Below, piece by piece: positions 4,901 through 31,900 of a stretch of 41,298 bases of DNA (positions are counted from its first letter, which is position 1; every line of letters starts with the position of its first letter). The DNA is taken from assembly GCF_004010195.1 (NCBI RefSeq), contig NC_057719.1, forward strand, positions 47,332,716 to 47,374,013, read 5' to 3'. The DNA is from Chiloscyllium plagiosum. Its lineage: Eukaryota. The notes beneath the pieces are model-generated. The model worked only from the letters and a program-made list of their open reading frames with translations, ran no database searches and was not told the DNA's origin. Both the position numbers and the translations under genes were made by a program.

Positions 4901-7900
4901 GAACTGCACATAATATTCTAAATGTTGCCTATCTAAAGTTTTGTACAGCTGTAACATAACTTGCTAACTTTTACATTCAGTTCCCCGCCAAATGATGGCC
5001 AGCATGCTGTATGCCTTCTTGACCACCTTAGTCACTTGTGTTCGCACCTTTTGGGGATCTGTGGACCTGTATGCCCAGATCCCTCTATATGTCGAAATGT
5101 TCATGCATTCTCAGATATACCATTCATATTGCTGTACCGTTAATGCTTCAGTGATCTAGCAATTTTCAGTGTAAATTTAAACCAATTTCTACAGAGGTGT
5201 AGCAAAACTAGTTAACATGGTTCACCACGAAATATGACATTATAGCAATTTCTTACTGTAGGATAAATTTTAGGCATGACCTTACACAGTCCTCAAATTG
5301 TAGTGCAACTGCAATAAAATTTAACTAATTTGAGGCTCCCTACTCAGCATGATTTTTGTTATCAAGTCATCACTTGAAAGTCGATTTTGGGCTTGTAAAC
5401 GTGAATTAGGTTCATTGTCCTTTTAAGTATGAAAATGGTTGTCTGTTGAATCTCAGTGCTCAGCAGTTCTCTATAATGATGGCCAATGCATAAACATTTT
5501 GTCCTTGCCTCCTTTGGCATCTAAGGGTTCATGTACTATTTGGACAACACAATTTTTTTCAGCCTTTGATACGTCTAATATACCTTATTTAGTGATACAT
5601 CAGATAATATCAATTTAATATTTAACTTACTTTGCTTTTATTTTTACCTTTGTATATTTTCACTTTCTAACTTCTCTCATTTCTTTGTGATATTGGAAGA
5701 GTTTTTCTGGAGCATGTGTAATGTTCTTAGCTTCCTTAATCTGAAGTCTTTGCTGCTTTCATAACACTTCTCACCAACTTTCGTAAATTCATGTATACTT
5801 TTCAAATTGCTCCTACCTTACTAGATTTCGAATTATTTTCTTTATATTTCACGCTTTTAATCGACATTTTCATTCAGTTTGAAGAATCTATATGTTGAAC
5901 TTATTTATTTTTATTGTACACTTATTGTATTCATGGATGAGACCTTCAGAGAGTACCCTCCTCATTCATTTTGATTTCTCTGCAGCCTTTGACTAGGTTG
6001 ATCACAACATACTGCTCAATCAGATCTTCTCTGTTGTTAGAGATTGGAAATGTCTTTGTGTAATTCTATTGTCACTAATCCAATCATAGTCAGAAAGATG
6101 CCTGCAATGTCCCTTTGCATTGTTGCGTTGGATCACAAAGTGGCCGAGTAGAGGCTGATCGCTGAGTTTGGTAGCCATGGGGATGGCCTTAACCAGGACC
6201 TTGGGTCCATGTCACACTACAGGTGACCCCATTGCACTCTGCGCTCTCGTTCTCACACACACACGCACATAACTTCTCTCATACTCAAGCTTTCTCTCAT
6301 ACGCTCACACGTACTCACCCACACAAGAAACTCTCACGGACTTATACCCTTTTACACTCAGACGCATACACGTACACACTCTCACAGGCACTCATTTTCC
6401 CCCCCCTCCCATCACAAGTTTGTGAGGTGAATTTGTACTTGCAGAATTACATTTTATTTTGCTCAAAAACTGCATGAATCCATGTAAGATTCTGTAGATC
6501 CGTTTTTTAGATTAGAATCAGTCTGAACATTGGGACACAGACAGCCTTATACCTTCAATACATTATCTGGGCTGACATGGCACCAATTGTTAAAGTTCAC
6601 TTGAGAATGTAACTTTAAAAAAAGTTCTGGGATTTACATATGAAAGAAATGACACCAACATGGTCATTCCAAAAGATAAAAGACTTGAAAAACATCTGGA
6701 CTGTTTGTTAATATAATTTCAGTTACATCACACTGTAAACTTTTGCTGTAAATTCTGTGTCTTACGATCTTATACTCAACAACCACCTGATGAAGGAGCA
6801 GCACTCCGAAAGCCAGTGCTTCCAAATAAACCTGTTGGACTATAACCTGGCATTGTGTGAATTTTTAACTTTGTACACCTCAGTCCAATACTGGCACCTC
6901 CAAATCTTTCTGGTCCTGCACTGTTGCCTTTAGAGCCCTCCAAAAATCTATCCTTGGGAGTTTCCTATTACTCATGCATGTTGTCACTCTACAGCAATGT
7001 CTCATGACAAGGTGTCACATTCTACACAGAGTCATAGAGATGTACAGCACGGAACAGACCCTTCGACCAGATATCCCAACTTAATCTAGTCCCACATGCC
7101 AGCACCTGGCCCATATCCATCCAAGTACTTCCTATTCATATACCAATCCAGATGCCTTTTAAATGTTGCAATTGTACTAGCCTCCACCACTTTCTCTGGC
7201 AGCTCATTCCATACATGTACCACCCGCTGTGTGACAAAGTTGCCCCTTAGGTCTCTTTTATATCTTCCCCTCACCGTAAAACTATGTCCTCTAGTTTTTT
7301 CCCCACCCCATCAATGCCCGTCATGATTTTATAAACCTCCAGAAGGTGCCCCCTCAGCCTCTGACGCTCCAGGGAAAACAGACCTAGCCTATTCAAACTC
7401 TCCCTATAGCTCAATTCTCTAACCCTGATAACATCCTTGTAAATGTTTTCTGAACCCTTTTCAAGTTTCACAACGTCCTTCCAATAGGAAGGCGATCAGA
7501 ATTGCACACAGTATTCCAAAAGTGACCTAGCCAATGTCCTGTACAGCCGCAGCATGACCTCCCAACTCCTGTACTCGATACTCTGACCAATAAAGGAAAG
7601 CATACCAAATGCCGTCTTCACTATCCTATCTATCTGCAACTCCACTCACAAGGAGCTATGAATTTGCACTGCAAGGTCTCTTTGTTCAGCAACACTCCCT
7701 AGAACATTACCATTAAGCGTAAAAGTCCTGCTAAGATTTGCTTTCCCAAAATGCAGCATCTCTCATTTATCCAAATACATGTACATCCTGTCCCTCAGGA
7801 TTCCCTCCAACAACATGCCCACCACCGACGTCAGGCTCACTGGTCTATAGTTCCCTTGCTTGTACTTACCACCTTTCTTAAACAGTGGCATCACATTAGC

Positions 7901-10900
7901 CAACTTCCAGTCTTCCGACACCTCACCTGTGACTATAGATAGAGTCATAGAGATGTACAGCATGGAAACAGACCCTTCGGTCCAACCTGTCCATGCCGAC
8001 CAGATATCCCAACCCAATCTAGTCCCACCTGCCAGCACCCGGTCCATATCCCTCCAAATCCTTCCTATTCATATACCCATCCAAATGTCTCTTAATGTTG
8101 CAATTTGTGGTGAAACGGTTAAAAATTATGTCCCAATACATGTGTGAATCTAACCGGAATGGAGGTGTTGCTTAGTCCCGTGTGAATCTTATTACACACC
8201 TCCCCGTGTGAATCTTCTTATCTGTATGTAACCAGAATGGAATGTGTTTTTTAGCCTTGCTCTGCTGTTCACATGAATGTTTATATCTGGAAAAGAGTAT
8301 ATCAGCTGGAAAAGTCTCCAGTTCGGAGAGTCTGCTCCGGGGTTACGTTTAACCGCCGAGCGTGGGTTGTTGGCAACCGCTCTACGAGAACTGACGGCTC
8401 CCAGTTCCGGGAACATGTAGAGTGAGTATAAGCCAGACCCGTTCTGGCGACGCTGCGGGGAATAAAATGCCCATATTCTAGCAGACTCGCCTCTTGGTCA
8501 TTTGTTCTGTGTCAGACTACTCTCCTACGAACCTGACCTTGAGAATTTTTAAAAACATTTGGCGTAGTCGAGCAGGATCAATCGCAATTGAGGAGAGATT
8601 TTGATACAGAACAATGTTTTGGAAAAAGACTAAGAAACCAGAAGAACAAACTGTGGAGGTCCCGACCGTCCCGGGATGGCATGGATGTGGGCATGTACGT
8701 GGCAGTTTGTTTGAGAAAGGATCCCAGTCCTGCCGAAGAACCCCTTGCCTGGGGTACAGCGGAGGATGTGGGCATGTCCAAAAAACTGAAGCGGAGTTAA
8801 CAGAATTGAATGGGATTGAACTGAACTGAACTGAGTGGAACTGAAGTGAATCAAATTGAACGGAACAAAATGGAACTGAGCTAAATTGAATTGAAATGGA
8901 CGGAACTGAATTGAACACAATTGAATTGAACTGAACAGACCTGAACTGAGCTGAATTGAACTACACTGAATTGACTGAACTGAAATTAACTGAAACGAAT
9001 TGCATAATGTAACACATGTATTGGGCCAAGCAGTGGAATGTGGTGAAACAGTTAAAAATTATGTCCCAATACATGTGTGAATCATAATGTAACACATGTA
9101 TTGGGCCAAGCAGTGGAATGTGGTGAAACAGTTAAAAATTATGTCCCAATACATGTGTGAATCATAATGTAACACATGTATTGGGCCAAGCAGTGGAATG
9201 TGGTGAAACAGTTAAAAATTATGTCCCAATACATGTGTGAATCATAATGTAACACATGTATTGGGCCAAGCAGTGGAATGTGGTGAAACAGTTAAAAATT
9301 ATGTCCCAATACATGTGTGAATCATAATGTAACACATGTATTGGGCCAAGCAGTGGAATGTGGTGAAACAGTTAAAAATTATGTCCCAATACATGTGTGA
9401 ATCATAATGTAACACATGTATTGGGCCAAGCAGTGGAATGTGGTGAAACGGTTAAAAATTATGTCCCAATACATGTGTGAATCATAATGTAACACATGTA
9501 TTGGGCCAAGCAGTGGAATGTGGTGAAACGGTTAAAAATTATGTCCCAATACATGTGTGAATCATAATGTAACACATGTATTGGGCCAAGCAGTGGAATG
9601 TGGTGAAAGGGTTAAAATTATGTCCCAATACATGTGTGAATCTAACCGGAATGGAGGTGTTGCTAAGTCCCGTGTGAATCTTATTACACACCTCCCCGTG
9701 TGAATCTTCTTATCTGTATGTAACCAGAATGGAATGTGTTTTTTAGCCTTGCTCTGCTGTTCACATGAATGTTTATATCTGGAAAAGAATAAAAAGCTGG
9801 AAAAGTCTCCAGTTCGGTGAGTCTGCCCCGGGGTTACGTTTAACCGCCGAGCGTGGGTTGTTGGCAACCGCTCTACGAGAACTGACGGCTCCCAGTTCCG
9901 GTAACATGTAGAGTGAGTATAAGCCAGACCCGTTGTAAGTATGAGACCAGGTTGTGGCGACGCTGCGGGGAATAAAATACCCATATTCTAGCAGACTCGC
10001 CTCTTGGTCATTTGTTCTGTGTCAGACTACTCTCCTACGAACCTGACCTTGAGAATTTTCTAAAACATTTGGCGCTGCGAGCAGGGTCAATCGCAATTGA
10101 GGAGAGATTTTGATACAGAACAATGTTTTGGAAAAAGACTAAGAAACCAGAAGAACAAACTGTGGAGGTCCCGACCGTCCCGGGATGGCATGGATGTGGG
10201 CATGTACGTGGCAGTTTGTTTGAGAAATGGTGGGGGGCGACCGGAGGAACCCCAGGGTCGCTGCTGTCCACCCTTGAGAGGATCCCAGTCCTGCCGAAGA
10301 ACCCCTTGCCTGGGGTACAGCGGAGGATGTGGGCATGTCCAAAAAGCTGAAGCGGAGTTAACAGAATTGAATGGGATTGAACTGAACTGAACTGAGTGGA
10401 ACTGAAGTGAATCAAATTGAACGGAACAAAATGGAACTGAGCTAAATTGAATTGAAATGGACGGAACTGAATTGAACACAATTGAATTGAACTGAACAGA
10501 CCTGAACTGAGCTGAATTGAACTACACTGAATTGACTGAACTGAAATTAACTGAAACGAATTGAACTGAATCAAGCATAATGTAACACATGTATTGGGCC
10601 AAGCAGTGGAATGTGGTGAAACGGTTAAAAATTATGTCCCAATACATGTGTGAATCATAATGTAACACATGTATTGGGCCAAGCAGTGGAATGTGGTGAA
10701 ACGGTTAAAAATTATGTCCCAATACATGTGTGAATCATAATGTAACACATGTATTGGGCCAAGCAGTGGAATGTGGTGAAACGGTTAAAAATTATGTCCC
10801 AATACATGTGTGAATCATAATGTAACACATGTATTGGGCCAAGCAGTGGAATGTGGTGAAACGGTTAAAAATTATGTCCCAATACATGTGTGAATCTAAC

Positions 10901-13900
10901 CGGAATGGAGGTGTTGCTTAGTCCCGTGTGAATCTTATTACACACCTCCCCGTGTGAATCTTCTAATCTGTATGTAACCAGAATGGAATGTGTTTTTTAG
11001 CCTTGCTCTGCTGTTATTATCTGTATGTAACCAGAATGCTTTTTCTTAACCAAACCCTCAATTCCTTTAGTCATCCAGCATTCCCTATAGTTATCAGCCT
11101 TCCCTTTCACCCTGACAGGAATATACTTTCTCTGGACTTTTGTTATCTCATTTCTGAAGGCTTCCCATTTTCCAGCCATCCCTTTACCTGCGAACATCTG
11201 CCTCCAATCAACTTGATCCAAATATCTCAGCAAGCAGCCCAGCCATCACTTCTCGCGCTTCCCACAGAGTTCTAGGGTACACCTGATCAGGTCCTGGGGA
11301 TTTATCCACCTTTTCCCATTTCAAGACATCCAGCTCTTCCTCCTCTGTAATGTGGCCATTTTACAAGATATCACCATGTATTTCCCCGCATTCTATATAT
11401 TCCATGTCCTTCTCCACAGTAAACACGGATGCAAAATACTCGTTTAGTATCTTCCCCCATCTCCTGCGGCTCCACACAAAGGCCGCCTTGCTGATCTTTG
11501 AGGGGCCCTATTCTCTCCCTAGTTACCCTTTTGTTCTTAAATTATTTGTGAAAACCCTTTGGATTCTCCTTAACCCTATTTGTCAAAGCCATCTCATGTC
11601 CTATTTTTGCCCTCCTGATTTCCCTCTTAAGTATGCTCCTACTGCCTTTATACTCTTCTAAGGATTCACTCGATCTATCCTGTCTATACATGACATATGC
11701 TTCCTCCTTTTTCTTAACCAAACCCTCAATTCCTTTAGTCATCCAGCATTCCCCATATCTACCAGCCTTTCCTTTCACCCTGACAGGAATATACTTTCTC
11801 TGGGTTCTCGTTATCTCATTTCTGAAGGCTTCCCATTTTCCAGCCGTCCCTTTACCTGCAAACTTGTGTCCCCAATCAGGTGTTGAAAGTTATTGCTTAA
11901 TACCATCAAAGTTGGCCTTTCTCAAATTTAGAACTTCAACTTTTAGATCTGGTCTATCCTTTTCCATCACTATTTTAAAACGAATAGAATTACGGTCGCT
12001 GGCCCCAAAGTGCTCCCCCACTGACACCTCAGTCACCTGTCCTGCCTTATTTCCCAAGAGTAGGTCAAGTTTTGCACCTTCTCTAGTAGATACATCCACA
12101 TACTGAATCAGAAAATTTTCTTGTACAAATTCCTCTCCATCTAAACCCTTAACACTATGGCAGTCCCAGTCGGTGTTTGGAAAGTTAAAATCCCTTACCA
12201 TAACTACCCTATTATTCTTACATTAGCTGAGATCTTCGGACAAGTTTGTTTCTCAATTTCCCTCTGACTATTAGGGGATCTATAATACAATCCCAATAAG
12301 GTGATCATCCCTTTCTTATTTCTCAGTTCCACCTAAATAACTTGCCTGGATTTATTTCCGGGAATATCCTTCCTCAGTATAGCTGTAATGCTGTCCCTTA
12401 TAAAAAATGCCACTCCCCCTCCTCTCTTGCCTCCCTTTCTATCCTTCCTATAGCATTTGTATCCTGGAACATTAAGCTGCCAGTCCTGTCCATCCCTGAG
12501 CCATGTTTCTGTAATTAGTATAATTACTGTGGTATCCCCAATCCCATGTTCCTACCCATGCCCCGAGTTCATCTGCCTTCCCTGTTAGACCTCTTGCATT
12601 GAAATAAATGCAGTTAATTTATCAATCCTACCTTGTTCCCTGCTTTGTCCCTGCCTGCCCTGATTGTTTGACTCACTTCTGTTCGCAATTGTACCAGTCT
12701 CAGATTGATCTCTTTCCTCACTAGCTTGTTGGGTCCCACCTTACTAGTTTAAATCCTCCTGAGCAGCTCTAGCAAAGTTCCCTGCCAGCATATTAGTCCC
12801 CTTCCAATTTAGGTGCAATCCGTCCTTCTTGTACAGGTCACTTCTACCCCAAAAGAGATTCCAATGATCCAAAAACGTAAATCCTTCTCCCATACACCAG
12901 CTCCTCAGCCATGCATTCATTTGCCCTCTTCCTGCCCTCACTAGCTCATAGCACTGGGAATAATCCTGATATTACTACCCTTGAGGACCTCCTTTTTAAA
13001 TTCCTGCCCAACTCTGTGTAGTCTCCCTTCAAAATCAATCTTTTCCCTTCCTATGTCATTGGTTCCAATGTGTACAATGACCTCTTGCTGGTCCCTCTCC
13101 CCCTTGAGAACATTCTGCACCCTCCCTGAGACATCCTTGATCCTGGCACCAGGGAAGCAACACACCATTCTGCTTTACCATTGCTGGCCACCAAAACGTC
13201 TATCTGTGCCCTGACTAGAGAATCCCCTAACACAATCGATTTCTTGGAACTCAATGTACCCCTTGTTGCATTAGAGCCAGTCTCAATACTAGAAACTTGG
13301 CTGTTCATGCTACGTTCCCCTGCGAATCCGCCCCCCCCCCCCCCCCGACATTTTCCAAAACGGCGTACTTTGAAATGGGGATAGCCACAGAAGACCCTGC
13401 ATGAACTACCTACCTCTCTTACCTTTCCTGGAGTTTAACCCATTTTGTGACCGAATCTGCGACTTTTCCCCCTTCCTATAATGGCCATCCATCACATCCC
13501 CTTGCTCTTGTAAATTCCTCATTGCCTGTAACTGTCTCTCCAACTATCCATTCGATCTGATAGGATTCGCAACCAACGGCATTTATTGCAGATGTAATCC
13601 TCAGTAACCCATAAACTCTCCCTAAACTCCCACATCTGACAAGAAGAGCATATCACTCTACTAAGGGCCGTTTTTGCTTCTTTCAATCTACAGACCCAGA
13701 AAATAGCATTATCTTATTCCTCGACAAAACACTGCTCCAGGTTAAATTAATACTTATGGCTTATATTCTAAGTTTAATCAAGAGACGTATCTCAATAAAA
13801 CATATAATCAAGAAAGAACCCACTCTACTCACTACTGCAGACTGACTGTAAGGCCACTTATAATATTCACTTATCTGTTTCTGTGCTGTGACCTGTCCCA

Positions 13901-16900
13901 AACAGGTTCCTCCAAGATTAGTTGTGAATTTCACTGTGTGGTGATGATTTCCAACTCTAGTCACCATCACTGCTGTCAATCTTTCTGCTCCCACTGCTGT
14001 CAGGCTGCTATTCTGACACAATCCCGGATGAACTTTTCTGTTGGTAAATGTTAGGCAGACCAAAGGAGCTGTCTTCAGTTCCAACCATTACTAAAGTTAT
14101 TGCCTGGAGAATAAGATCTTAAGCAGAAGAGGAGAACATCAAACAAGTTCCTTCGAAGTAAACTTTTAGCTTTAAAACCGAGGTACGTAAATTTGTATCC
14201 TGTTCAAAACCAAAGCAGATGACTTATGGATGGAATTTAATTCCAAAATTAAGCTCGTCAGTGGGCTATCTTTTCTCTTTTTATTTTGACTTTAATGTCC
14301 TCTGACCAACTCTGCTTGCAGTGAAATGAGTCTGGAAAGTTTTCAAAATATCTACTACAATGGAAGCCACACAACAAAACAAAATTGCATTCAGCACTAA
14401 CTGCAACTTTAACTCTGGGAATGGAAACAAATAGATGTGCTGTGTCAGTAATTGAAAACCCTCTTCTACTTCTGGATTAAGTGCATTGTTGGAATCCTAC
14501 ATAAGAAAAATAACCACAAGTCTAACTGTTGACATTGAAATTCTTCCTTACATCTTGGTGAGCATAAAAAACTATGGACGAGTTGGACCATTGACCCTAT
14601 GACTATTTAGGAGAAAGTGAGGACTGCAGATCAGAGCTGAAAATGTGTTGCTGGAAAAGCACAGCAGGTCAGGCAGCATCCAAGGAGCAGGAGAGAGAAA
14701 GTGAGGACTGCAGCTGCTGGAGATCAGAGCTGAAAATGTGTTGCTGGAATATAAAATGCTAGAATATAAATTTTATTAAATATAAAATGTGTTGCTCTCC
14801 TGCTCCTATGACTATTTATTTTATTCTAATCTATCACCAGAATGAAATTGTATCAATTCAGTATCTGTTGTTTTGCTAATTGAACAATTATATTCTTAGT
14901 TTATATGGCTGCACTGGCAAAGAATTATCGAATTTTGTGAGATATATAATTAGATGCATATATTGCACTTTAGTTCTTCTTAGGCAGACCCTTGGGATTA
15001 AGGATGACTTTCTTCCACTTTGGTGTTGTGGATGTGAGGTGACTAAATAGCCCAATACTGGATGTCCACACCCTGCTGCAGATATGACCAGTAGTCTTTA
15101 CTGAAGTGGGCGGGTGGGTGGGATGCTCAGGATTTCATATTCTCCTTCCATTGTTCGTGATTGCCCTCCATCTGGCCTGTTGGAGATGTTTGGCACATTC
15201 ACAGAGACTTCACTTCTATCTAATGCTATTAAGGTTTAAATGTCTATAAGAAATGACTGTGTCAGTTGTGATTTTAATTTAACTGTTCATTATCTTACAT
15301 CAAATTCAATCTCCTCCTTAATATAATGCACAAAATTTTCATTGCATCTTGAACACAACATGTGTAATAAATAGAAATCTAGGCATGTTATTTAAGACTA
15401 TACCATTTCTCCGCAACTGTTGAGAAATGATGAGTTAACAATTCATTCATGACTTAAAAGGCAATGAAAAGGCTTCAATATTTGTGCAAGATTATCTTTA
15501 AAACTTTGATAAGATAGCTATATCTGCTCTTACTGGGTTATAGTTAGCATGGAAATTTGAGAAATGTCTGGTGAGGACCACATTAGGATTATTGATGATA
15601 CCCCATAGATTTAATTGTATGCCAACACTTCTGATTAACATTTGAAAAATGGTTACTAGATTTTATATTGCGATGGATGGCCATCTGGTACAAAGAGAAG
15701 TGTATGTTTTCATGACTCAACACCTTCAAAGAAATTTGAAAGGGTTCAGAAAAGATTTACAAGGATGTTGCCAGGGTTGGAGGATCTGAGCTACAGGAAG
15801 AGGCTGAACAGGCTGGGGCTGTTTTCCCTGGAGCATCGGAGGCGAGGGGTGACCTTATAGAGGTTTACAAAATTATGAGGGGCATGGATAGGATAAATAG
15901 ACAACGTCTTTTCCCTGGGGTTGGGGAGTCCAGAGCTAGAGGGCATAGGTTTAGGGTGAGAGGGGAAAGATATAAAAGAGACCTAAGGCGCAACCATTTC
16001 ACGCAGAGGGTGATACGTGTATGGAATGAGCTACCAGATGGTGTGGTAGAGGCTGGTACAATTGCAACGTTTAAGAGGCATTTGGATGGGTATATGAATA
16101 GGAAGGGTTTGGAGGGATATGGGCTAGGTGCTGGCAGGTGGGACTAGATTGGGTTGGGATATCTGGTCGGCATGGATGGGTTGGACCGAGGGGTCTGTTT
16201 CCATGCTGTACACCTCTATGACTCTAAGAGGAGCCAAAAGCATGAGGGAAGGCTGGAGAAAGTATGTGTTCTGGAGTACAAGCGAGAGATATTGCAGGGT
16301 CAACACTTTACTGAGTTCCAAGCCTTGGTTGTGTTGCTTATGAAGTGTGAGAAAGTAATTGGAACAAATTGCCATTGACTTCTTGTGATTCTTGCCGAAA
16401 AGCTGGCTTGGGAGTTTTATCTCACATCTTCTGTGGAAAAGAGAGAAAACGCTGAAAATGCAGGTTCATCAAAGAGGTTAACATGCAATTAAAAGTTCTT
16501 GTGTGTTTGCTGTCTATTTTCAGAAGGTGTAGATAAATTGCTTGTACATTGCTTATTTGTTATTTGGTCAGATTACTTTTCAATTGTGGAATTTTTGCAT
16601 TTCTAAAAGTAGTACTGTCTTTTCAAAAGTTTGGCAAGGAACATGTTCATTTTATAAAATTATTATTGTGCATTAGATGAGTAAATATGACCATACCAGC
16701 ATTAAATCTCATTTTTACAACTAACCAGGGCATGGCCCTTGTTTGAAACGATACTCTATACTTACAATAAGTCTAACAGTGAAGGGCTAGACTCACAGTT
16801 TAACCAGAATTATACAATTTTTAATCACTTAATTTTTGGAGTTGTATGAATTTTTAAAGAATAATTACTGTAAAAAATCTCTCCCTGTGTTGACTATTTT

Positions 16901-22900: not shown

Positions 22901-25900
22901 TGACACAGTGGTTAGCACTGCTGCCTCACAGCGCCAGTTTAGTTCCCGCCTCAGGCAATAGTCTGTGTGGAGTTTGCACATTCTCCCCATGTCTGTGTGG
23001 GTTTTCTCCCACGGTCCAAAGATGTGCAGGTTAGGTGAATTGGCCATGCTAAATTGCCCATAGTGTTAGGTGAAGGGGTAAATGTAGGGGAATGGGTTTG
23101 GGTGGGTTGCTCTTCGGAGGGTCGGTATGGACTTGTTGGGCCGAAGGGCCTGTTTCCACACTGTAAGTAATTTAATCTAATTAAAAATTTCCTAAAGAAA
23201 TGCTCTACAGCAAGCTCTTCAATTATAAGTAATCTCTAACAGGGCAGAGGACAAGGATGTCTTGAAAACCTCCCTAAATAAATGCAACATTTCTGCTGAC
23301 ATGTGGGAGTCACTTGCCCTAGAATGCATGAATTGGAGAAGAAGCCTCTGTGAATTGAGTACGTAGAGGCTAAGTGAAAAGAGTGCACAGAATCTAGAGT
23401 GTCCCATTCACCCACCTGCCCCGCCTGAGGCAGAGTGTGTGGCTCCATTGGACTATTGGACTATTTAGTGAGTACAGAACCCACTACCTCCTATCACCTC
23501 ACCATCCCCCCGCAACCTGCCGGTCAGCCCGTTTACAACCCTCCACCGCACTCACTGGCTGAGTGGAAGCAAATCATCTTCAGCCCTTAAGGACTGGCAA
23601 AGCAGTAGACTGAGAAAAGATAGAAGAGAATTAAAAAGACTTTGCATTGCTCTGAAAGAAAAGCTTCCTGTTCATCTTCACCTTAAATGATGGGAGATTT
23701 TATTTTGAAACTGTACTCAGTTCTTGATTCCCAAACCCCCGCCCCGAGAGGAAATGTTTTCTACTCCATCAGGACCCATCAGTATCTTGTATTTCAATTG
23801 ATTGTCTCTTAGTCTTCTAAACTGTAATGAATAAAGAAGTAGTCTGCTTAACCTTTCTTCGTAAAATAGCCCCTTTCATCCCAGGAATCAGTGTTGTGAC
23901 TTTCTCAGATATACTTAGAGTCATAGAGATGTACAGCATGGATACAGACCCTTCGGTCCAACCCGTCCATGCCGACCAGATACCCCAACCCAATCTAGTC
24001 CCACCTGCCAGCATCCAGCCCATATCCCTCCAAATCCTTCCTATTCATATACCCATCCAAATGCCTCTTAAATATTGCAATTGTACCAGCCTCCACCACT
24101 TCCTCTGGCAGCTCATTCCATACATGTACCACCCTCTGTGTGAAAAAGTTGCCCCTTAGGACTCTTTTATATCTTTCCCATCTCACCCTAAACCTATACC
24201 CTCTAGTTCTGGACTCCCTGACCCCGGGGAAAAGATTTTGCCTATTTACCCTATCCATGCCCCTCATAATTTTGTAAACCTCTATAAGGTCACCCCTCAG
24301 CCTCCGACACTCCAGGGAAAACAGCCCCAGCCTGTTCAGCTACTTGCTTTGGAAGCAGTTAAATCTTTCCTTTACTAAGGAGATAAAACAGAACACCGTA
24401 CTCCAGATGCATTCTGACCAATGTCCTGTTCAGTTGTAGTAAGATTTTCTAACTCTTGAACTCTATTCCTCTTGCAATAAGTGCTAGCATTCCACTTGCC
24501 TTCCTAATTGCTCTGGTCTCTTTGTACTGCAATGTTCTACAGTCTCTATCCACTTGCATGATATTCTGCATTTTCAGGTTTCCTGCCAAGGTGGATAATT
24601 TCATACTTTGCAATATTGTATGCATCTGCCAATTTTTTGCCCACTCACTTAACTTGTTTCAACACTTTTTGAAACCTCCTCACAGTGTGTTTTCTTATCC
24701 TTGAAGGAGACTTGGTGAGTTACTGTGGTGCAATCTTGTAACTGGCATACATTGCTGTGACTATATGTTGGCATTGGAGGGAGTGAATGGTTAAAGCAAT
24801 GTATGTGATACCAATCAAACAAGCAGTTTGTCTTGGATGATGTCAAGCTTCTTGAGTGTTATTGGAGCTGATGGATTATTCCGTCACACTCCTGACCTTG
24901 CCTTGTAGAAAATGGAAAGGCTTTGGAAATAAAGAGATGAGTTCACTGCAGAATTTAAGGAAACGGAGAGTGTGACTGATGGGGATGTGGGTAGTGTGGA
25001 TTTAGAAGAGGTTGCAAAAGAGGTCCAGCAAATGTTGGTTGTGTCCAACCAGTAAGAACTAGAATAGAATTATAAAAGTAATAGACGATTTTATAATAGA
25101 GGATAGATAGCATCTTCCGTAACCAAGAACATCAATCCCAAAGTGTGTGGCCTAGCAGATCCAAGGATATGGGATATTTCACGTCACCTGTAAAGGAAGA
25201 GACAAAATAATTAGACAAAAATAAAATCCATGTGAATAAGGATAAAACATAATAAAGACTTAGTCACAGGTGCAGGTGTCGTCTACAGATGACCTAATGA
25301 TGAAAGTGAAGGAAGAAAAATGTAGACAAGTTAGGGAATTGGCTTTTTTAAAGAAAATGGGAGATTGTCACTACCTTGATATTAATTGCTAGGAAGATGC
25401 TTATGAATGCGAAGTGGAGAGTTGAGGAGCAATATTTTCACTTAGAGGTTGGTAGGATCTGGAACTCCCTTCCAGGAAGGATGATTCAGTCAGAAACTCT
25501 TTTGATATTTAAGCAGTATTTAGATAGTCATGTATATTGTCAAAGCCTTCAGAAGCAAAAACGAAAAATGGGATTAATGAAGTCAGATTTTGTCAACATT
25601 GTGTAGGCACAATATGCAAAATGGCTCCCTTCTGTGCTGCATTGAGTTCATGAACAGTAGAAGTAGCTAATGGAAATAAGGGAATGGAGTTTCTACAATG
25701 TGTATTGTTGATTTTCTGATCCAACGTATAGTTCAATAAGGGAAGTTTTTTTTTATTGGATCCGGTAATGAGAATAAACCAAAATAGATATGTATGGCAA
25801 GACATTGCTACATTAGTCATACATTATGTTTTGAGATAGGTTGGGGATAAACTGAGTCTGAGGGGCTGAGATTATAGGCTTTGCAAAGAAAAAGGCAGTA

Positions 25901-28900
25901 ATGGCAAGCAACAATGTAGAACAGAAACAAAAGCATTTAAAGTGATAAACCTGTTCCACTAAAACGAAAGAACAGACTTAACAAAAATTCTCTGGATGAA
26001 TAAAGATATCAGGGAATAATTGAAGGTTAAGAAAGTCAACAGAGGGTAGAATAAGAAACTGCACACAGTCCAGGCTTATGAGAAGCATCACTGATAACCA
26101 ATCCTGTGCAGTATGCACTGTAAACCGCTAATCTGACCCAGCCAGCCTGACCAAGCAAGGCAGCCATAATGGCTGAACCAGAAAACCGTGACCAGGGCAG
26201 ACATGAGATGCTCAACAGAACATCAATAGATAAAGTGAGAAGGTATGATAGTGAGTTAAACCTGATGAGTATGTATTACTAATATGCAACACCGGTGTAT
26301 CTGGTGAATTGAGATATATTCAGTGCACATGATGGAAATGCCTGGTACTTGTGCTTCCTCTCAGCCATGCGGCCTCAAGGAAGCTCCGTGCACAGTGATC
26401 AGCGTACAGATTCATGGATTCCACTTTTGGAAGCCAATACCGTGCACAGACCTCAGGGGTTCACACAATCGCAAGAAAAATTATAAGGAACTTTGGCTGG
26501 CACCCAGTCTTGTATGTGACAGTCTGCTTCATTGGATAACTTCCCCTATTTGTGAAATTAGTAATTAAAGCTAAGGCAGCGACCTTGATAGAAAATAGAA
26601 TATTACAGCGCAGTACAGGCCCTTCAGCCCTCAATGTTGCGCCGATCTGTGGAACTAATCTAAAGCCCATCTAATCTATGCTATTCCATTTTCATCCATA
26701 TGTTTATCCAATGACCATTTGAATGCCCTTAAAATTGGTGAGTCTACTGCTGTTGCAGGCAATGCATTCCACGCCCCTACTACTCTCTGAGTAAAGAAAC
26801 TACCTCTGACATCTGTTCTATATCTATCACCCCTCAATTTAACACTATGTCCTCTCGTGCCAGCCATCACCATCTGAGGAAAGTTGCGCTCACTGAGAGC
26901 CCTCATCTAACCCTTTGATTATCTTATGTCTCAGCTAAGTCACCTCTCCACCTTCTTCTCTCTAACGAAAACAATCTCAAGTCCCTCAGCATTTCCTCAT
27001 AAGTCCTTCCCTCCATACCAGGCAACATCCTAGTAAATCTCCTCTGCGCTCTTTCCAAAGCTTCCACATCCTTCCTATGATGAGCTGACCAGAACTGCGC
27101 ACAATATTCCAAGTGCGGCTGCACTAGAGTTTTGTACAGCTGCAGCATGACCTCATGGCTTTGAAACTCAATCCCTCTACCAATAAAAGCTAACACACCA
27201 TATGTAGCCTTAACAACCCTATCAACCTGGGTTGTAACTTTCAGGGATCTGTATACATGGACACTGAGATCTCTCTGTCATCTACACTAGCAAGAATCTT
27301 ATCATTAGCCTAATACTCTTTATTCCTGTTACTCCTTTCAAAAGTGAATCACCTCACACTTTTCTGCATTAAACTCCATTTGCCACCTCTCTGCCCAGCT
27401 CTGTAGCCTACTATGTCCCTCTATAACCTGCAACATCCTTCAGCACTATCCACAGCTCCCCCGACCTTAGTGTCATCTGCAAATTTACAAACCCATCCTT
27501 CTATGCCCTCATATAGGTTATTTATAAAAATGGCAAACAGCAGTGGCCCCAAAACAGATTCTTATGGTACACTACTAGTAACTGAACTCCAGGATGAACA
27601 TTTCCCAACAACCACCACCCTCTGTCTTTTTTCAGCTAGCCAATTTCTGATCCAAACTGCTAAATCACCATCAATCCCATGCCTCCGTACTTTGTTCAAT
27701 AGCCTACTGTGGGGAAACTTATCAAATGCCTTACTGAAATCCATATACACCACATCAACCGCTTTACCCTCATCCAACTGTTCGGTCACCATCTCAAAGA
27801 AATCAATTAGGTTGGAAGCATGACCTACCTTTCACAAAACCGTGTTAAGTATCCCTAATCAACTTATTCCTCTCTAGATGATTAGAAATCCTATCTCTTA
27901 TAATCTTTTCCAACATGTTACCCACAACCGAAGTAAGGCTCGCTGGTTTATAATTATCAGGGTTGACTTTACTCCTCTTCTTGATCAAGGGGACAACATT
28001 TGCTATCCTCTAGTCTTCTGGTACTATTCCTGTAGACAATGACAACATAATGATCAAAGCCAAAGACTCTGCAATCTCCTCCCTGGTTTCCCAGAGAACC
28101 CTAGGACAAATCCCATCCAGCCCAGAGGACTTTTACCTATTTTCTCACTTTCCAGAATTGTTAACACCTCCTTGTGAACCTCGAGCCCGTCCAGTCTAGT
28201 AGCATGTACCTCCATATTCTCCTCGACAACATTGTCTTCTTCCAGTATGAATATTGATGAAAAATATTTATTATGCGCTTCCCCTATCTCCTCAGATTCC
28301 ACATACAACTTCCCACTACTGTCCTTGACTGGCCCTAATCTTTTTCTAATCATTCTTTTATTCCTTATATACCTATAGAAAGCTTTAGGGTTTTCTTTGA
28401 TCCTATTTGCCGATGATTTTTCATGTCCCCTCTTGGCTACTCTTAGCTCTCTCTTTCGGTCTTTCCTGGCTAACTTGTAACTCTCAAGCACCCTAACTAA
28501 GCCTTCAACTCTAATCCTAACATAAGCCGCCGCCTTCTTCTTGACAAGAGATTTAGCTTCTTTATTAAACCATGGTTCCCTCGCTCGACCACTTCCTCCC
28601 TGCCTGCCAGGCACATACTTATCAAGGACACGTAGTAGCTATTTCTTGAATAAGCTCCACATTTCAATTATGCCCATCCCCTGCAGTTTCTGTCCTCATC
28701 CTATGCATCCTAAAACTTGGTTAATTGCATCATGATTGCCTTTCCCCCAGCAATAACTCTTGCCCTGTGATATATATTTATCCCTTTCCATCGCTAAAGT
28801 AAACATAAGTGAATTGTGGTCACTATCACCAAAGTGCTCCCTGACCTCCAAATCTTTAACACCTGACCAGGTTCATTAACCAGTAGCAAATCCAATGAGG

Positions 28901-31900
28901 CCTCGCTCCTTGTTGGCTTGTCTACATACTGTGTCAAGAAACCATCCTTCACACATTGGACAAAGGCTGACCCATCTAAAGTACTCGAACTATAATATTT
29001 CCAGTCAATATTTGGAAAGTTAAAGTCCCCCATAACCATTAACCTGTCACTCTTGCTCCTGTTTAGAATTATCTTTGCTATCCTTTTCTCTACATCTCTG
29101 GAACTATTCAGAGGCCTATAGAAAACTCCCAACAGGGTAACCTCTCCTTTCCTGTTTCTAACCTTAGCCCATTCTACCTCAGTAGACGAATCCTCAAACG
29201 TCCTTTCTGCCACCATAATACTGTCCTTGACTAACAACGCCACACCTCCCCCTCTTTTTACCACTTTCTATGTTCTTAGTGAAACATCTAAATCTCAGAA
29301 CCTGCAACAACCATTCCTGCTCTACCCATTTCTCCGAAATGGCCTCAACATTGAAGTCCCATGCTGTAACTTTGCCCACCTTATTCTGGATGCTCCTGGC
29401 GTTGAAGTAGAGACACCTCAAACGACCTTCCTGCTTGCCGGTGAACTCTTGCGAACTTGAAACCTTATTTCTGACTTCACTACTCTCAACCTTCTCTATC
29501 GCTCTCTCTCTCTCTCTCTCTCTCTATCGCACTCTCCTCTCTATCGCGCGCTCTCTCTCTATCGCGCGCTCTCTATCTCTATCGCTCTCGCGCTCTCTAT
29601 CTCTCTCTCTCTATCTCTCTCCGTCCCCGACTGTAACCCAGCTGCCTTTGTCTTGCAGCTGAGGAGTGACTACCCCTGTAACCCCCTCTGCCTCCCGAAT
29701 GATCCGAAGTTCATCCAACTCCAACTCCAGTTTTCGAGGAGTTGGAGTTGGGTGCACTTCCTGCAGTGGAAGTCAGCAGGGACACTACTGGTGACTGCTA
29801 CCTCCCACATTCTAAATTCAACTGCCCTAACCTCCATTTCCACTATTCTAAATTGCCAAAGAGACTGTTGAAAAACTTTTAAAAACTGGTTCCCTTACCA
29901 ATCTGGCGCACAGAACTTTTTTTTGGTTAGAGAACGAGGATGGGTGGGAGATACTGCCTAAGTAGTGTAACGCAACCACCCAAATGTATTACTTACTTAT
30001 TCAGCAGTCCCGTGTCCACTCCTGCTCAGCGTGCTCTCCACCTATTTACGAGGTAAGTTTTCAAATCAGTGATTCGCCTTTCCATCAGACCCCTGGTCGA
30101 CACTCCCGTTTTTGCTCCTACTGAAACAAAAAAGTGGCAGTCTTTGGTTGGGGTGGCCTCATGTTGCCTGCTGTCAAAAGCAGTACATCCCTTCTCTCTC
30201 ATGACCTGCAGAACATCTAGGCATGTGTAATTGGAATGTGCAGCCACATTTTGTCTGCTCTCCGATATTTCCAGGGGCAAGTAGCAGGAGCCCAGCAGAG
30301 GTTATAGAACATAGAAAAATACAGCGCAGTGCAGGCCCTTTGGCCCTCGATGTTGCGCCGATCCAAGCCCACCTAACCTACACTAGCCCACTATCCTCCA
30401 TATGCCTATCCAATGCCCGTTTAAATGCCCATAAAAAGGTAGAGACCACCACTGCTACTGGCAGAGCATTCCATGAACTCACGACTCGCTGAGTAAAGAA
30501 TCTGCCCCTAACATCTGTCCTATACCTACCACCCCTTAATTTAAAGCTATGCCCCCTCGTAATAGCTGACTCCATATGTGGAAAAAGGTTCTCATAGTCA
30601 ACCCTATCTAAACCCCTAATATCTTGTACACCTCTATCAAGTCACCCCAAACCTTCTCTTCTCCAATGAAAACAGCCCCAAGTGCCTCAGCCTTTCCTCA
30701 TACAATCTTCCTACCATACCAGGCAACATCCTGGTAAACCTCCTCTGCACCCGTTCCAGTGCCTCCACATCCTTCCTATAGTATGGCGACCAAAACTGCA
30801 CACAATACTCCAGATGCGGTTGCACCAGAGTCTTATACAACTGCAACATGTCCTCAGGAACTCAATTCCTCTGCCAATAAAAGCCAGTACCCATATGCCT
30901 TCTTCACCGCACTATTTACCTGGGTGGCAACTTTCAGAGATCTGTGTACATGGACACCAAGATCCCTCTGTTCATCACACTACCAAGTATCCGACCATTA
31001 GCCCAGTACCCCATCTTTTTGTTACTCTTACCAAAGTGAATCACCTCACACTTAACTACATTGAACTCCATTTGCCACCTTTCTGCCCAGCTCTGCAGCT
31101 TATCTATATCCCGTTGTAACCTGCCACATTCTTCCTCACTGTCAACAACTCCACCGACTTTCGTATCATCCGCAAACTTGCTCACCCAACCTTCTAGCCC
31201 CTCCTCCAGGTCATTTATAAAAATGACAAACAGCAATGGTCCCAAAACAGATCCTTGCGGAACACCGCTAGTAACGGCACTCCAAGATGAACCTTTACCA
31301 TTAATAAAGGTCGAGTGATGCTCCTAGAAAATGCTCAGAAGATTTAATGTTCTGCTTGCGCATGCAATGGCCTGAGAAGAACAGAATCACATAAAATCGA
31401 CCTAAGCTACCTGTGAGTGGAAGTACTTTCTACTTTAGGTGCAGCACCACACTTGTCTTCTAAAAGAGAGGATTCTATGCAAAGTGATCTTGGACTACAA
31501 ACACATGCTGCACTGTGGGTTAGCAAGATCATGTCTTTTCTTTCACAAAAGACAAGCCATACCCTAGAGTTTACTTTTCGAGAAAAGGAATTGAAAGTTG
31601 GTAGATTATGCTCAGCCTGTATTGAAGTTTAGTTCAATCACACACGAGAGAACACCTGCAGGTTTGGGCACAATATTAAAATTATATTGCAGCATAATAA
31701 GGGGTGCAGGGAATATTTACAACGATGATACAAGAAATAAATGAGTTAGTGTGTCAGGAAAGGATTGACAGACTGGATCTCTTTCTTTGGAATAATGTAC
31801 GCTGAGAAGTGACCTATTCGGAGACTTCCAAATAGTGGTTACAGAAATAATGTTTTCTCTGTGAGACAGAGCATACGTAGTGATCATAAGTATAAGATAC

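Follow-up and report, generated by a model that had tools for sequence, protein, structure and literature searches.

A probable genomic tandem of two gag-remnant retroviral derivatives, with hairpin minisatellites at the polypurine tract, in an intron of the shark Chiloscyllium plagiosum

What is the compact structure with several long terminal repeats (LTRs) that lies in intron 2 of a Chiloscyllium plagiosum gene, and how did its two units come to share one LTR? The stretch analysed, positions 47,332,716-47,374,013 of the forward strand of NC_057719.1, is 41,298 nt long and is called the window here. The element runs from 8106 to 11038 and is laid out as LTR1, internal region 1 (int1), eight copies of an 80-bp repeat, LTR2, internal region 2 (int2), four copies of an 80-bp repeat, and a 187-bp fragment of LTR3. 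With a probability of about 0.72, it is a genuine tandem in the genome, made up of two copies of a non-autonomous element that derives by deletion from a shark class III endogenous retrovirus (ERV) and was moved in trans, with arrays that expanded later. Its parts are as follows; PBS stands for primer-binding site, P0001 is the 75-residue open reading frame (ORF) of unit 2, P0002 a basking-shark protein and P0009 a white-shark protein.

8106..8557, + strand: LTR1, 452 bp, TG...CA, without the 19-bp segment; AATAAA at 8461 and GTGAGT at 8422
8560..8578, + strand: PBS1, complementary to the tRNA-Ser 3' end, 18/18 with one extra base, by eye against the human tRNA-Ser oligonucleotide in PMC3299991 (in part)
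8614..8777, + strand: gag stub 1, broken, without the 52-bp segment; from tblastn of P0002 and P0009, two frames, E about 1e-8
8799..9002, + strand: degenerate TGAAC microsatellite of unit 1
9003..9642, + strand: 80-bp array 1, 8.0 copies, 99%; each unit joins the final 36 nt of the internal region to the LTR's first 44 nt
9599..10067, + strand: LTR2, 469 bp, common to both units, with the 19-bp segment; AATAAA at 9788 and 9971, donor-like GTRAGT at 9817, 9913 and 9935
10070..10087, + strand: PBS2, complementary to tRNA-Ser(TGA), 17/18, against the Ser_TGA_1-1 primer in PMC12217144 (in part)
10123..10338, + strand: gag stub 2, from P0001 against P0002; frame breaks near 10195-10205 and near 10246, homology ending at 10338
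10360..10575, + strand: degenerate TGAAC microsatellite of unit 2, 12 bp longer than that of unit 1
10576..10896, + strand: 80-bp array 2, 4.0 identical copies, 100%
10852..11038, + strand: LTR3, 5' fragment of 187 bp cut by a deletion, with the start of a 52-bp U3 duplication at 11016-11038

A preliminary description, made from the letters alone, had proposed an LTR-int-LTR-int-LTR array of a miniature non-autonomous element. Two full LTRs and two internal regions are indeed present, and the LTRs, estimated at about 450-470 bp, measure 452 and 469 bp; LTR3, however, is merely a 5' fragment, and the true end lies 23 bp beyond the 11015 first given, where the element is joined to sequence of a long interspersed nuclear element (LINE). 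Up to the first polypurine tract (PPT), int1 is 481 bp and int2 544 bp, close to the half kilobase expected. The differences between them are the PBS, the 52-bp segment, 12 bp in the microsatellite and a single additional substitution. The absence of 52 bp from int1 was correctly seen; the TTGAGA microhomology offered for it is out of register, because the 54-bp spacing of the two words does not equal the 52 bp deleted, and the joint shares 1-3 letters.

Each unit retains LTR, PBS, leader and PPT, the last a short and imperfect tract (9/11 purines), and nothing of pol or env, as expected of a non-autonomous LTR element. Coding capacity is confined to the broken gag stub, about the first 70 codons of gag. 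The short ORF reported earlier is therefore a real reading frame but more than a plain ORF, being a broken 5' gag remnant; Pfam placed 0 families on it. No pol or env homology was found in 7-12 kb of the window, nor was an origin for the TGAAC microsatellite, the pentamer tract now seen in both units. The earlier inventory of PBS, ORF, microsatellite and PPT-like tract is right as far as it goes, but it overlooked the two 80-bp arrays, which together make up about one third of the element. Priming by tRNA-Ser agrees with both PBSs, which do differ between the units; the first 16 nt of PBS2 are identical to a tRNA-Ser PBS given in PMC4635179. Elements of the TRIMp3 group (Cassandra, Helenus, Ajax) carry LTR sequence derived from small RNAs; here Rfam gave 0 matches at gathering score in the window, where decayed tRNA-like boxes got no further search.

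From what kind of virus was the stub derived? Among 1.84 billion proteins P0001 has 2 matches, the better being P0002 (E 5.8e-13) and the other P0003 (E 1.7e-4). The P0001 N-terminus is identical to P0002 at 44/83 positions (53%), and the nearest named protein relatives of the stub are from sharks. P0002 and P0009 share 211/218 N-terminal residues (97% in Gag). After Gag, P0009 continues into reverse transcriptase (RT), RNase H and an integrase zinc domain, a partial Pol, while P0002 beyond its Gag part matches an Env-like family that sharks and teleosts share (P0004-P0012). No Pfam family scored above cut-off on that Env-like family, and the AlphaFold model of an Env relative has a mean pLDDT of 46. 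P0002 and P0009, in which Gag is joined to Env and to a partial Pol respectively, are read as other deleted copies of a related retrovirus in lamniform sharks.

The Pol relatives carry protease, RT, RNase H and integrase, then dUTPase. The dUTPase stands downstream of integrase in P0083 (Carcharodon), P0064, P0065 and P0013, among which the helper of this genome was not seen; P0083, from the white shark, is 99% identical to P0009 over the overlap. Pfam found no Gag zinc finger on P0002, whose Gag is incomplete, or on P0003, which appears whole. PDB matches are MLV-type RT first, then foamy. Gypsy-type matches score far lower. A Gag relative falls closest to Atlas clusters of spumaviral Gag (0.87), which is no more than a lead. 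In the metagenome collection, 325 pattern matches to the Pol relatives yielded 0 confirmed. Set against the ERV3 criteria in the table of Chong et al. 2014 (PMC4299795, in part) and in Kojima 2018 (PMC5753468, in part), this domain order would fit descent of the element from a class III, ERV3/ERV-L-like retrovirus and not from ERV4, a domain-order call on relatives. ERV4 lacks dUTPase (PMC4299795 Table 1, in part); membership in it was considered and rejected, since the relatives carry dUTPase. The Gypsy partner once offered as an option falls away as well, the relatives being retroviruses with env and with dUTPase after integrase. Like ERV3/ERV-L elements, the relatives have protease, RT, RNase H, integrase and dUTPase and no Gag zinc finger; they differ in belonging to a shark/fish lineage with its own env family and tRNA-Ser priming, and the element itself encodes nothing intact.

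The element had also been filed as similar to TRIMs (terminal-repeat retrotransposons in miniature). This does not hold, because one unit with two LTRs is about 1385-1482 bp even with the arrays excluded, against a TRIM limit of <1000 bp (PMC10886601, in part), and because gag remnants are kept. Two LTRs, with PBS and PPT at the internal ends, and the lack of any encoded mobilisation protein are shared with TRIMs such as Cassandra and Helenus, as are shortness and tandem arrays with shared LTRs; TRIMs are thought to use Copia or Gypsy helpers, whereas the relatives here are retroviral, as the helper would be. Nor are LTR-sharing tandems mostly a plant phenomenon, as had been supposed. Besides the plant element Cassandra (PMC7215508, in part), tandem arrays are reported for the zebrafish TRIM Helenus LTR-11_DR (PMC10886601, in part), and yeast, bivalve and Drosophila elements are reported to form tandems with one LTR in common (PMC11042837, in part). 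In its way of working the element would resemble a TRIM or a MaLR, with cis signals only and movement in trans. MaLRs depend on ERV-L and have a gag-derived internal part. Both are LTR elements with no genes or a gag remnant that would rely on a class III helper; compared by description, the differences are that MaLRs are mammalian and that the element carries PPT arrays, a microsatellite and an internal region of much smaller length. In Repbase the MaLR groups MLT1, MST and THE1 are filed under ERV3 (PMC5753468, in part).

Whether the two units belong to a larger family can be asked of public sequencing runs. A total of 24 runs was found, all as contigs; 20/24, from 9 studies and several coded organisms, contain the stretch 9563-10375, and the contigs of 4 of the 24 hold next to none of the element's words, which is no proof of absence. 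Contigs of four runs were placed, on 9563-10375 only: X1 and X5 (organism A), X11 (organism B) and X16 (organism C), with 6358, 732, 31 and 52 contigs and a longest piece of 188 bp. The tandem joint of the 80-bp repeat is present in 4/4 of these. Compared with the gag break, this joint is covered 1.5 times as deeply in X5 and 1.7 times as deeply in X11, both presumed to be DNA runs. Such depths are sums over contigs and give no copy number; the ratios are possibly off several-fold, and the X5 joint sums 3 contigs. The array looks family-wide, because one locus with ten joints could hardly equal the depth of the whole family. The 52-bp skip occurs in 3/4 runs, the PBS1 type in 4/4, and the form without the 19 bp in X1 and X5. 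Since the skip and both PBS types occur in these runs, int1 and int2 are family haplotypes, which bears out the earlier proposal that two distinct copies were joined. The many haplotypes and the contig numbers point to a multicopy family.

The same runs give evidence on the helper. In 3/4 of them (X5, X11, X16) gag continues past 10338, and the first ten codons match P0002 residues 80-89 at 8/10 positions, by eye. Such contigs, running on from the stub into gag sequence, show that a helper-like form exists. At the same depth X11 holds pieces of LTR that carry 7 changes and 2 gaps over 147 bp, and 16 changes and 8 gap letters over 180 bp, and an LTR roughly 90-95% alike is present in the same runs as the gag-continuing contigs, a linkage drawn from depth in contigs only. 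The autonomous partner predicted for the element thus finds its counterpart in a gag-continuing form with a similar LTR. Depth at the non-autonomous junction exceeds that of the gag-continuing form about 43-fold in X16.

How, then, were two members of this family joined? LTR1 and LTR2 differ by 12 substitutions, two 1-bp indels and one 19-bp segment, which puts counts to the 19 extra bp and several substitutions noted before. The upstream portion (first 364 bp) holds 10 of the substitutions and 3 indels, including variants known from other copies. Throughout 8470-8549 the two LTRs are the same, and at 8500/10010 they have in common a letter for which at least 99.5% of the depth in all four runs reads otherwise. 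A hybrid LTR1 formed by recombination fits this pattern, because LTR1 and LTR2 differ upstream and yet are identical over 8470-8549 with a rare shared letter. In the proposed sequence of events the units would have been copied in trans by the Gag and Pol of the helper. A second copy, as linear cDNA, would then have entered the 5' LTR/PBS of a resident copy by homologous recombination, with no part played by integrase, leaving two units that share one LTR and an LTR1 that is a hybrid of resident and incomer. A later deletion would have removed most of LTR3 together with flanking LINE DNA. Among the routes to a tandem, this is the favoured one, at rather less than an even chance. It has an experimental precedent in Tf1, where cDNA recombination without integrase was shown (Li et al. 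2022, PMC11042837, in part). In Tf1 at resident Tf2, as here, two elements are separated by one hybrid LTR, and homology at PBS and PPT drives insertion (PMC11042837, in part); that work concerns autonomous elements in fission yeast, whereas the present case is drawn from one locus.

LTR3 is a third family haplotype, because the joint of its U3 duplication (9761 to 9710) occurs in X1 and X5. The same joint led to the dropping of another idea, that 11016-11038 is a repair-templated insert. LTR1 and LTR3 are identical at 162/163 positions, a likeness that mostly reflects the family's common letters and carries little information; its use as evidence for a single reverse-transcription event was dropped for that reason.

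Other routes would lead to much the same layout. Two family RNAs could have been packaged together and, with an extra minus-strand transfer from 5' R to 3' R, copied into one 3-kb cDNA that was integrated once. The two haplotypes and the outer LTRs alike at 162/163 positions agree with this, the small size lifts the packaging limit, and one route named for the tandems of Cassandra is template switching (PMC7215508, in part). The outer LTRs of such a dimer should be identical, however, and the U3 duplication of LTR3 is absent from LTR1; the rare letter common to LTR1 and LTR2 is also unexpected, as their R-U5 would stem from different RNAs. This route is considered unlikely. Similar small weight is given to a chromosomal rearrangement, in which ectopic or unequal exchange between two insertions, either neighbours in the intron or paired through the 80-bp arrays, was followed by LTR conversion. 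Three-LTR structures are documented to arise when neighbouring elements recombine (PMC7215508, in part), three LTR haplotypes are present, and the flanks are non-contiguous LINE parts, although the break in LTR3 alone accounts for the flank mismatch. Exchange between neighbours predicts that LTR2 equals LTR1 in the 5' part, and the match is found in the 3' part; sister-chromatid duplication predicts identical internal regions, and these differ in PBS type and the 52 bp. An assembly artefact, two loci or haplotypes joined through LTR and arrays, might be suspected in a repeat-rich region with one truncated end and no spanning read. It is very improbable, given that the junctions are in exact LTR/PBS/PPT register, the flanking DNA is not duplicated, host exons stand in order on both sides, and the 80-bp, 52-bp and U3 joints occur in independent runs.

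Several observations nevertheless tell against a genuine tandem of class III derivatives, or against parts of that account. No read or contig spans the tandem, as the runs were placed on 9563-10375 only and the longest piece is 188 bp. The U3 duplication, in LTR3 and not in LTR1, means that the cDNA route needs a collapse, and gene conversion after tandem formation would also yield the letter shared by LTR1 and LTR2. The ratio of joint to gag-break depth is just 0.02 in X1 and 0.15 in X16, so many abundant copies there are without the array. Uniform arrays can be produced by assembly polishing as well. The class III assignment rests on domain order in relatives that are about 53% alike in Gag.

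The tandem also raises the question of how its minisatellites arose. In each 80-bp unit the PPT-like tract ends the internal part and the LTR start follows. A perfect 14-bp inverted repeat flanks the LTR start, its arms at -27 to -14 and +27 to +40, with the PPT and the TG tip in the loop. No stem of that length was reached in 2000 shuffles (longest 10), and the folding z of the unit is -3.1 and -3.3 as RNA and -4.0 as minus-strand DNA. Unit boundaries are 4-9 nt from the stem base. The 11 full units have one variable column, with the variant in five adjacent copies and no singleton, a uniformity with a chance of 0.012 to 0.0004 under LTR-like divergence (0.5-0.9%). Arrays more uniform than LTR divergence predicts suggest later turnover in DNA, unless polishing evened them. 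On the favoured account, the unit would have been duplicated once in the family ancestor by slippage across the hairpin base and inherited by daughter copies, its copy number now shifting as in an ordinary minisatellite in chromosomal DNA. A search of the metagenome collection with the PPT/LTR pattern gave 0 matches.

The arrays might instead be made afresh by RT, jumping back at the base of the 14-bp hairpin and recopying several times per round, so that unit number is fixed at insertion. Unit ends within 4-9 nt of the stem base and a hairpin that also forms in minus-strand DNA would agree with this, as would the shorter units and the second, shorter PPT/LTR-tip duplication of other copies, from which it follows that this spot was duplicated more than once. 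Yet arrays more uniform than the adjacent LTR point to later DNA turnover, two further sites in the family's LTRs are tandemly duplicated as well (52 and 114 bp), so that nothing may set the PPT site apart, and ERV-derived minisatellites are common (PMC3389668, in part). Fresh synthesis by RT is accordingly rated quite doubtful. More speculative still, and a long shot, is the combined idea that the PPT hairpin makes RT recopy the 80-nt unit repeatedly and that the resulting arrays serve as landing sites for integrase-independent insertion, whereby the family builds its own tandems. If true, vertebrates would here preserve a natural trace of a retroviral RT synthesising repeats, coupled with insertion that targets the family itself.

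Tandem amplification of a piece of an LTR element, sometimes carried by transposition, is known from other systems. For example, HERV and LTR12 minisatellites are common in the human genome (PMC3389668, in part), and CRM1TR and CRM4TR of maize are tandem repeats derived from LTR elements (PMC3648361, in part). Among those described in the available parts of the two papers, none has as its unit a short hairpin with the PPT and the integrase tip at its centre. The duplications in other copies of the present family comprise 9819-9932 (114 bp) and 9710-9761 (52 bp), both within the LTR, and the PPT/LTR-tip duplication at 9586-9605.

How old is the tandem? It had been called young, and int1 and int2 do differ by one substitution outside the PBS, the 52-bp segment and the microsatellite length. 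LTR2 does not share this appearance: at 9665, 9827, 10010 and 10060, about 1% of its length, at least 99.5% of the depth in the four runs reads otherwise. At 2.2e-10 per site per year, as Han 2015 assumed for elephant shark (PMC4422223, in part), these rare letters would correspond to tens of millions of years; LTR2 would be younger if they stem from RT errors or a rare sublineage.

Few ERVs have been described in sharks so far, and the element is likely one half of an uncatalogued multicopy pair of class III ERV parasite and helper in these animals. A mostly listing-level literature search, with supplements, subscription papers, Repbase and Dfam outside its scope, found nothing on this family or on a PPT-centred hairpin minisatellite. 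Non-autonomous ERV derivatives, LTR-sharing tandems and ERV-born minisatellites are known already; the repeated PPT/LTR-tip hairpin is unusual. It offers a case for how RNA structure at the plus-strand origin seeds duplications, and it bears on whether extra PPTs or LTR tips shift the plus-strand start or promote recombinational insertion.

Some variants in the runs concern expression. Variants at 10136 and 10345 dominate X1 and X16 and are absent from X5 and X11, which would fit one highly expressed copy if X1 and X16 are RNA. One X16 contig departs from the LTR exactly at the donor-like GTGAGT of 9913 and is followed by 255+ letters of other sequence. This partner sequence is absent from the window (1 match with 2 mismatches, which is chance level). 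The departure is a weak hint of a spliced host transcript from some copy, with transcription starting upstream of 9913, the RNA status of X16 being guessed. Two RNA runs labelled mouse metagenome, X19 and X20, contain 0.36 and 0.12 of the element's words, possibly by contamination, and no evidence is drawn from them.

The host gene is a multi-exon RING-finger gene on the + strand (window 1872-34031), presumably CGRRF1. The element lies within its intron 2 in sense orientation, surrounded by decayed LINE copies; both flanking LINE parts are probably of the CR1 type. The features around the element are these.

1872-1976, about 2071-2210 and from about 17833, + strand: coding exons of the host gene
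near 33.6-34.0 kb, + strand: last exon of the host gene, with the C3HC4 RING domain
7934..8105, - strand: left flank, an interspersed repeat read as a LINE 3' end and interrupted by LTR1; 93-94% to 23910-24082 and 16060-16226
11039..13400, - strand: right flank, decayed LINE ORF2 (endonuclease and linker region), by six-frame reading and BLASTN

A repeat copy at 7028-7469 extends beyond the point where the left-flank copy ends. ERV3/ERV-L-like elements make target-site duplications of 5 bp. None is readable here, because the right end of LTR3 is lost and what remains is joined to a LINE part not contiguous with that on the left. BLASTN found no further copies of the element in the rest of the window. 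The element is most likely without function for the host; a small effect on the host transcript is possible, as the sequence of this sense-orientation intronic insertion contains poly(A) signals and donor-like sites.

A 172-bp LINE piece occurs twice (91%), at 11039-11210 and 11707-11878, directly at the LTR3 break, and the right junction is therefore read as a complex rearrangement. Further along, pieces of a decayed long LINE ORF2 are present at about 27000-31300 on the - strand, with a (TC)n tract between them at 29493-29621.

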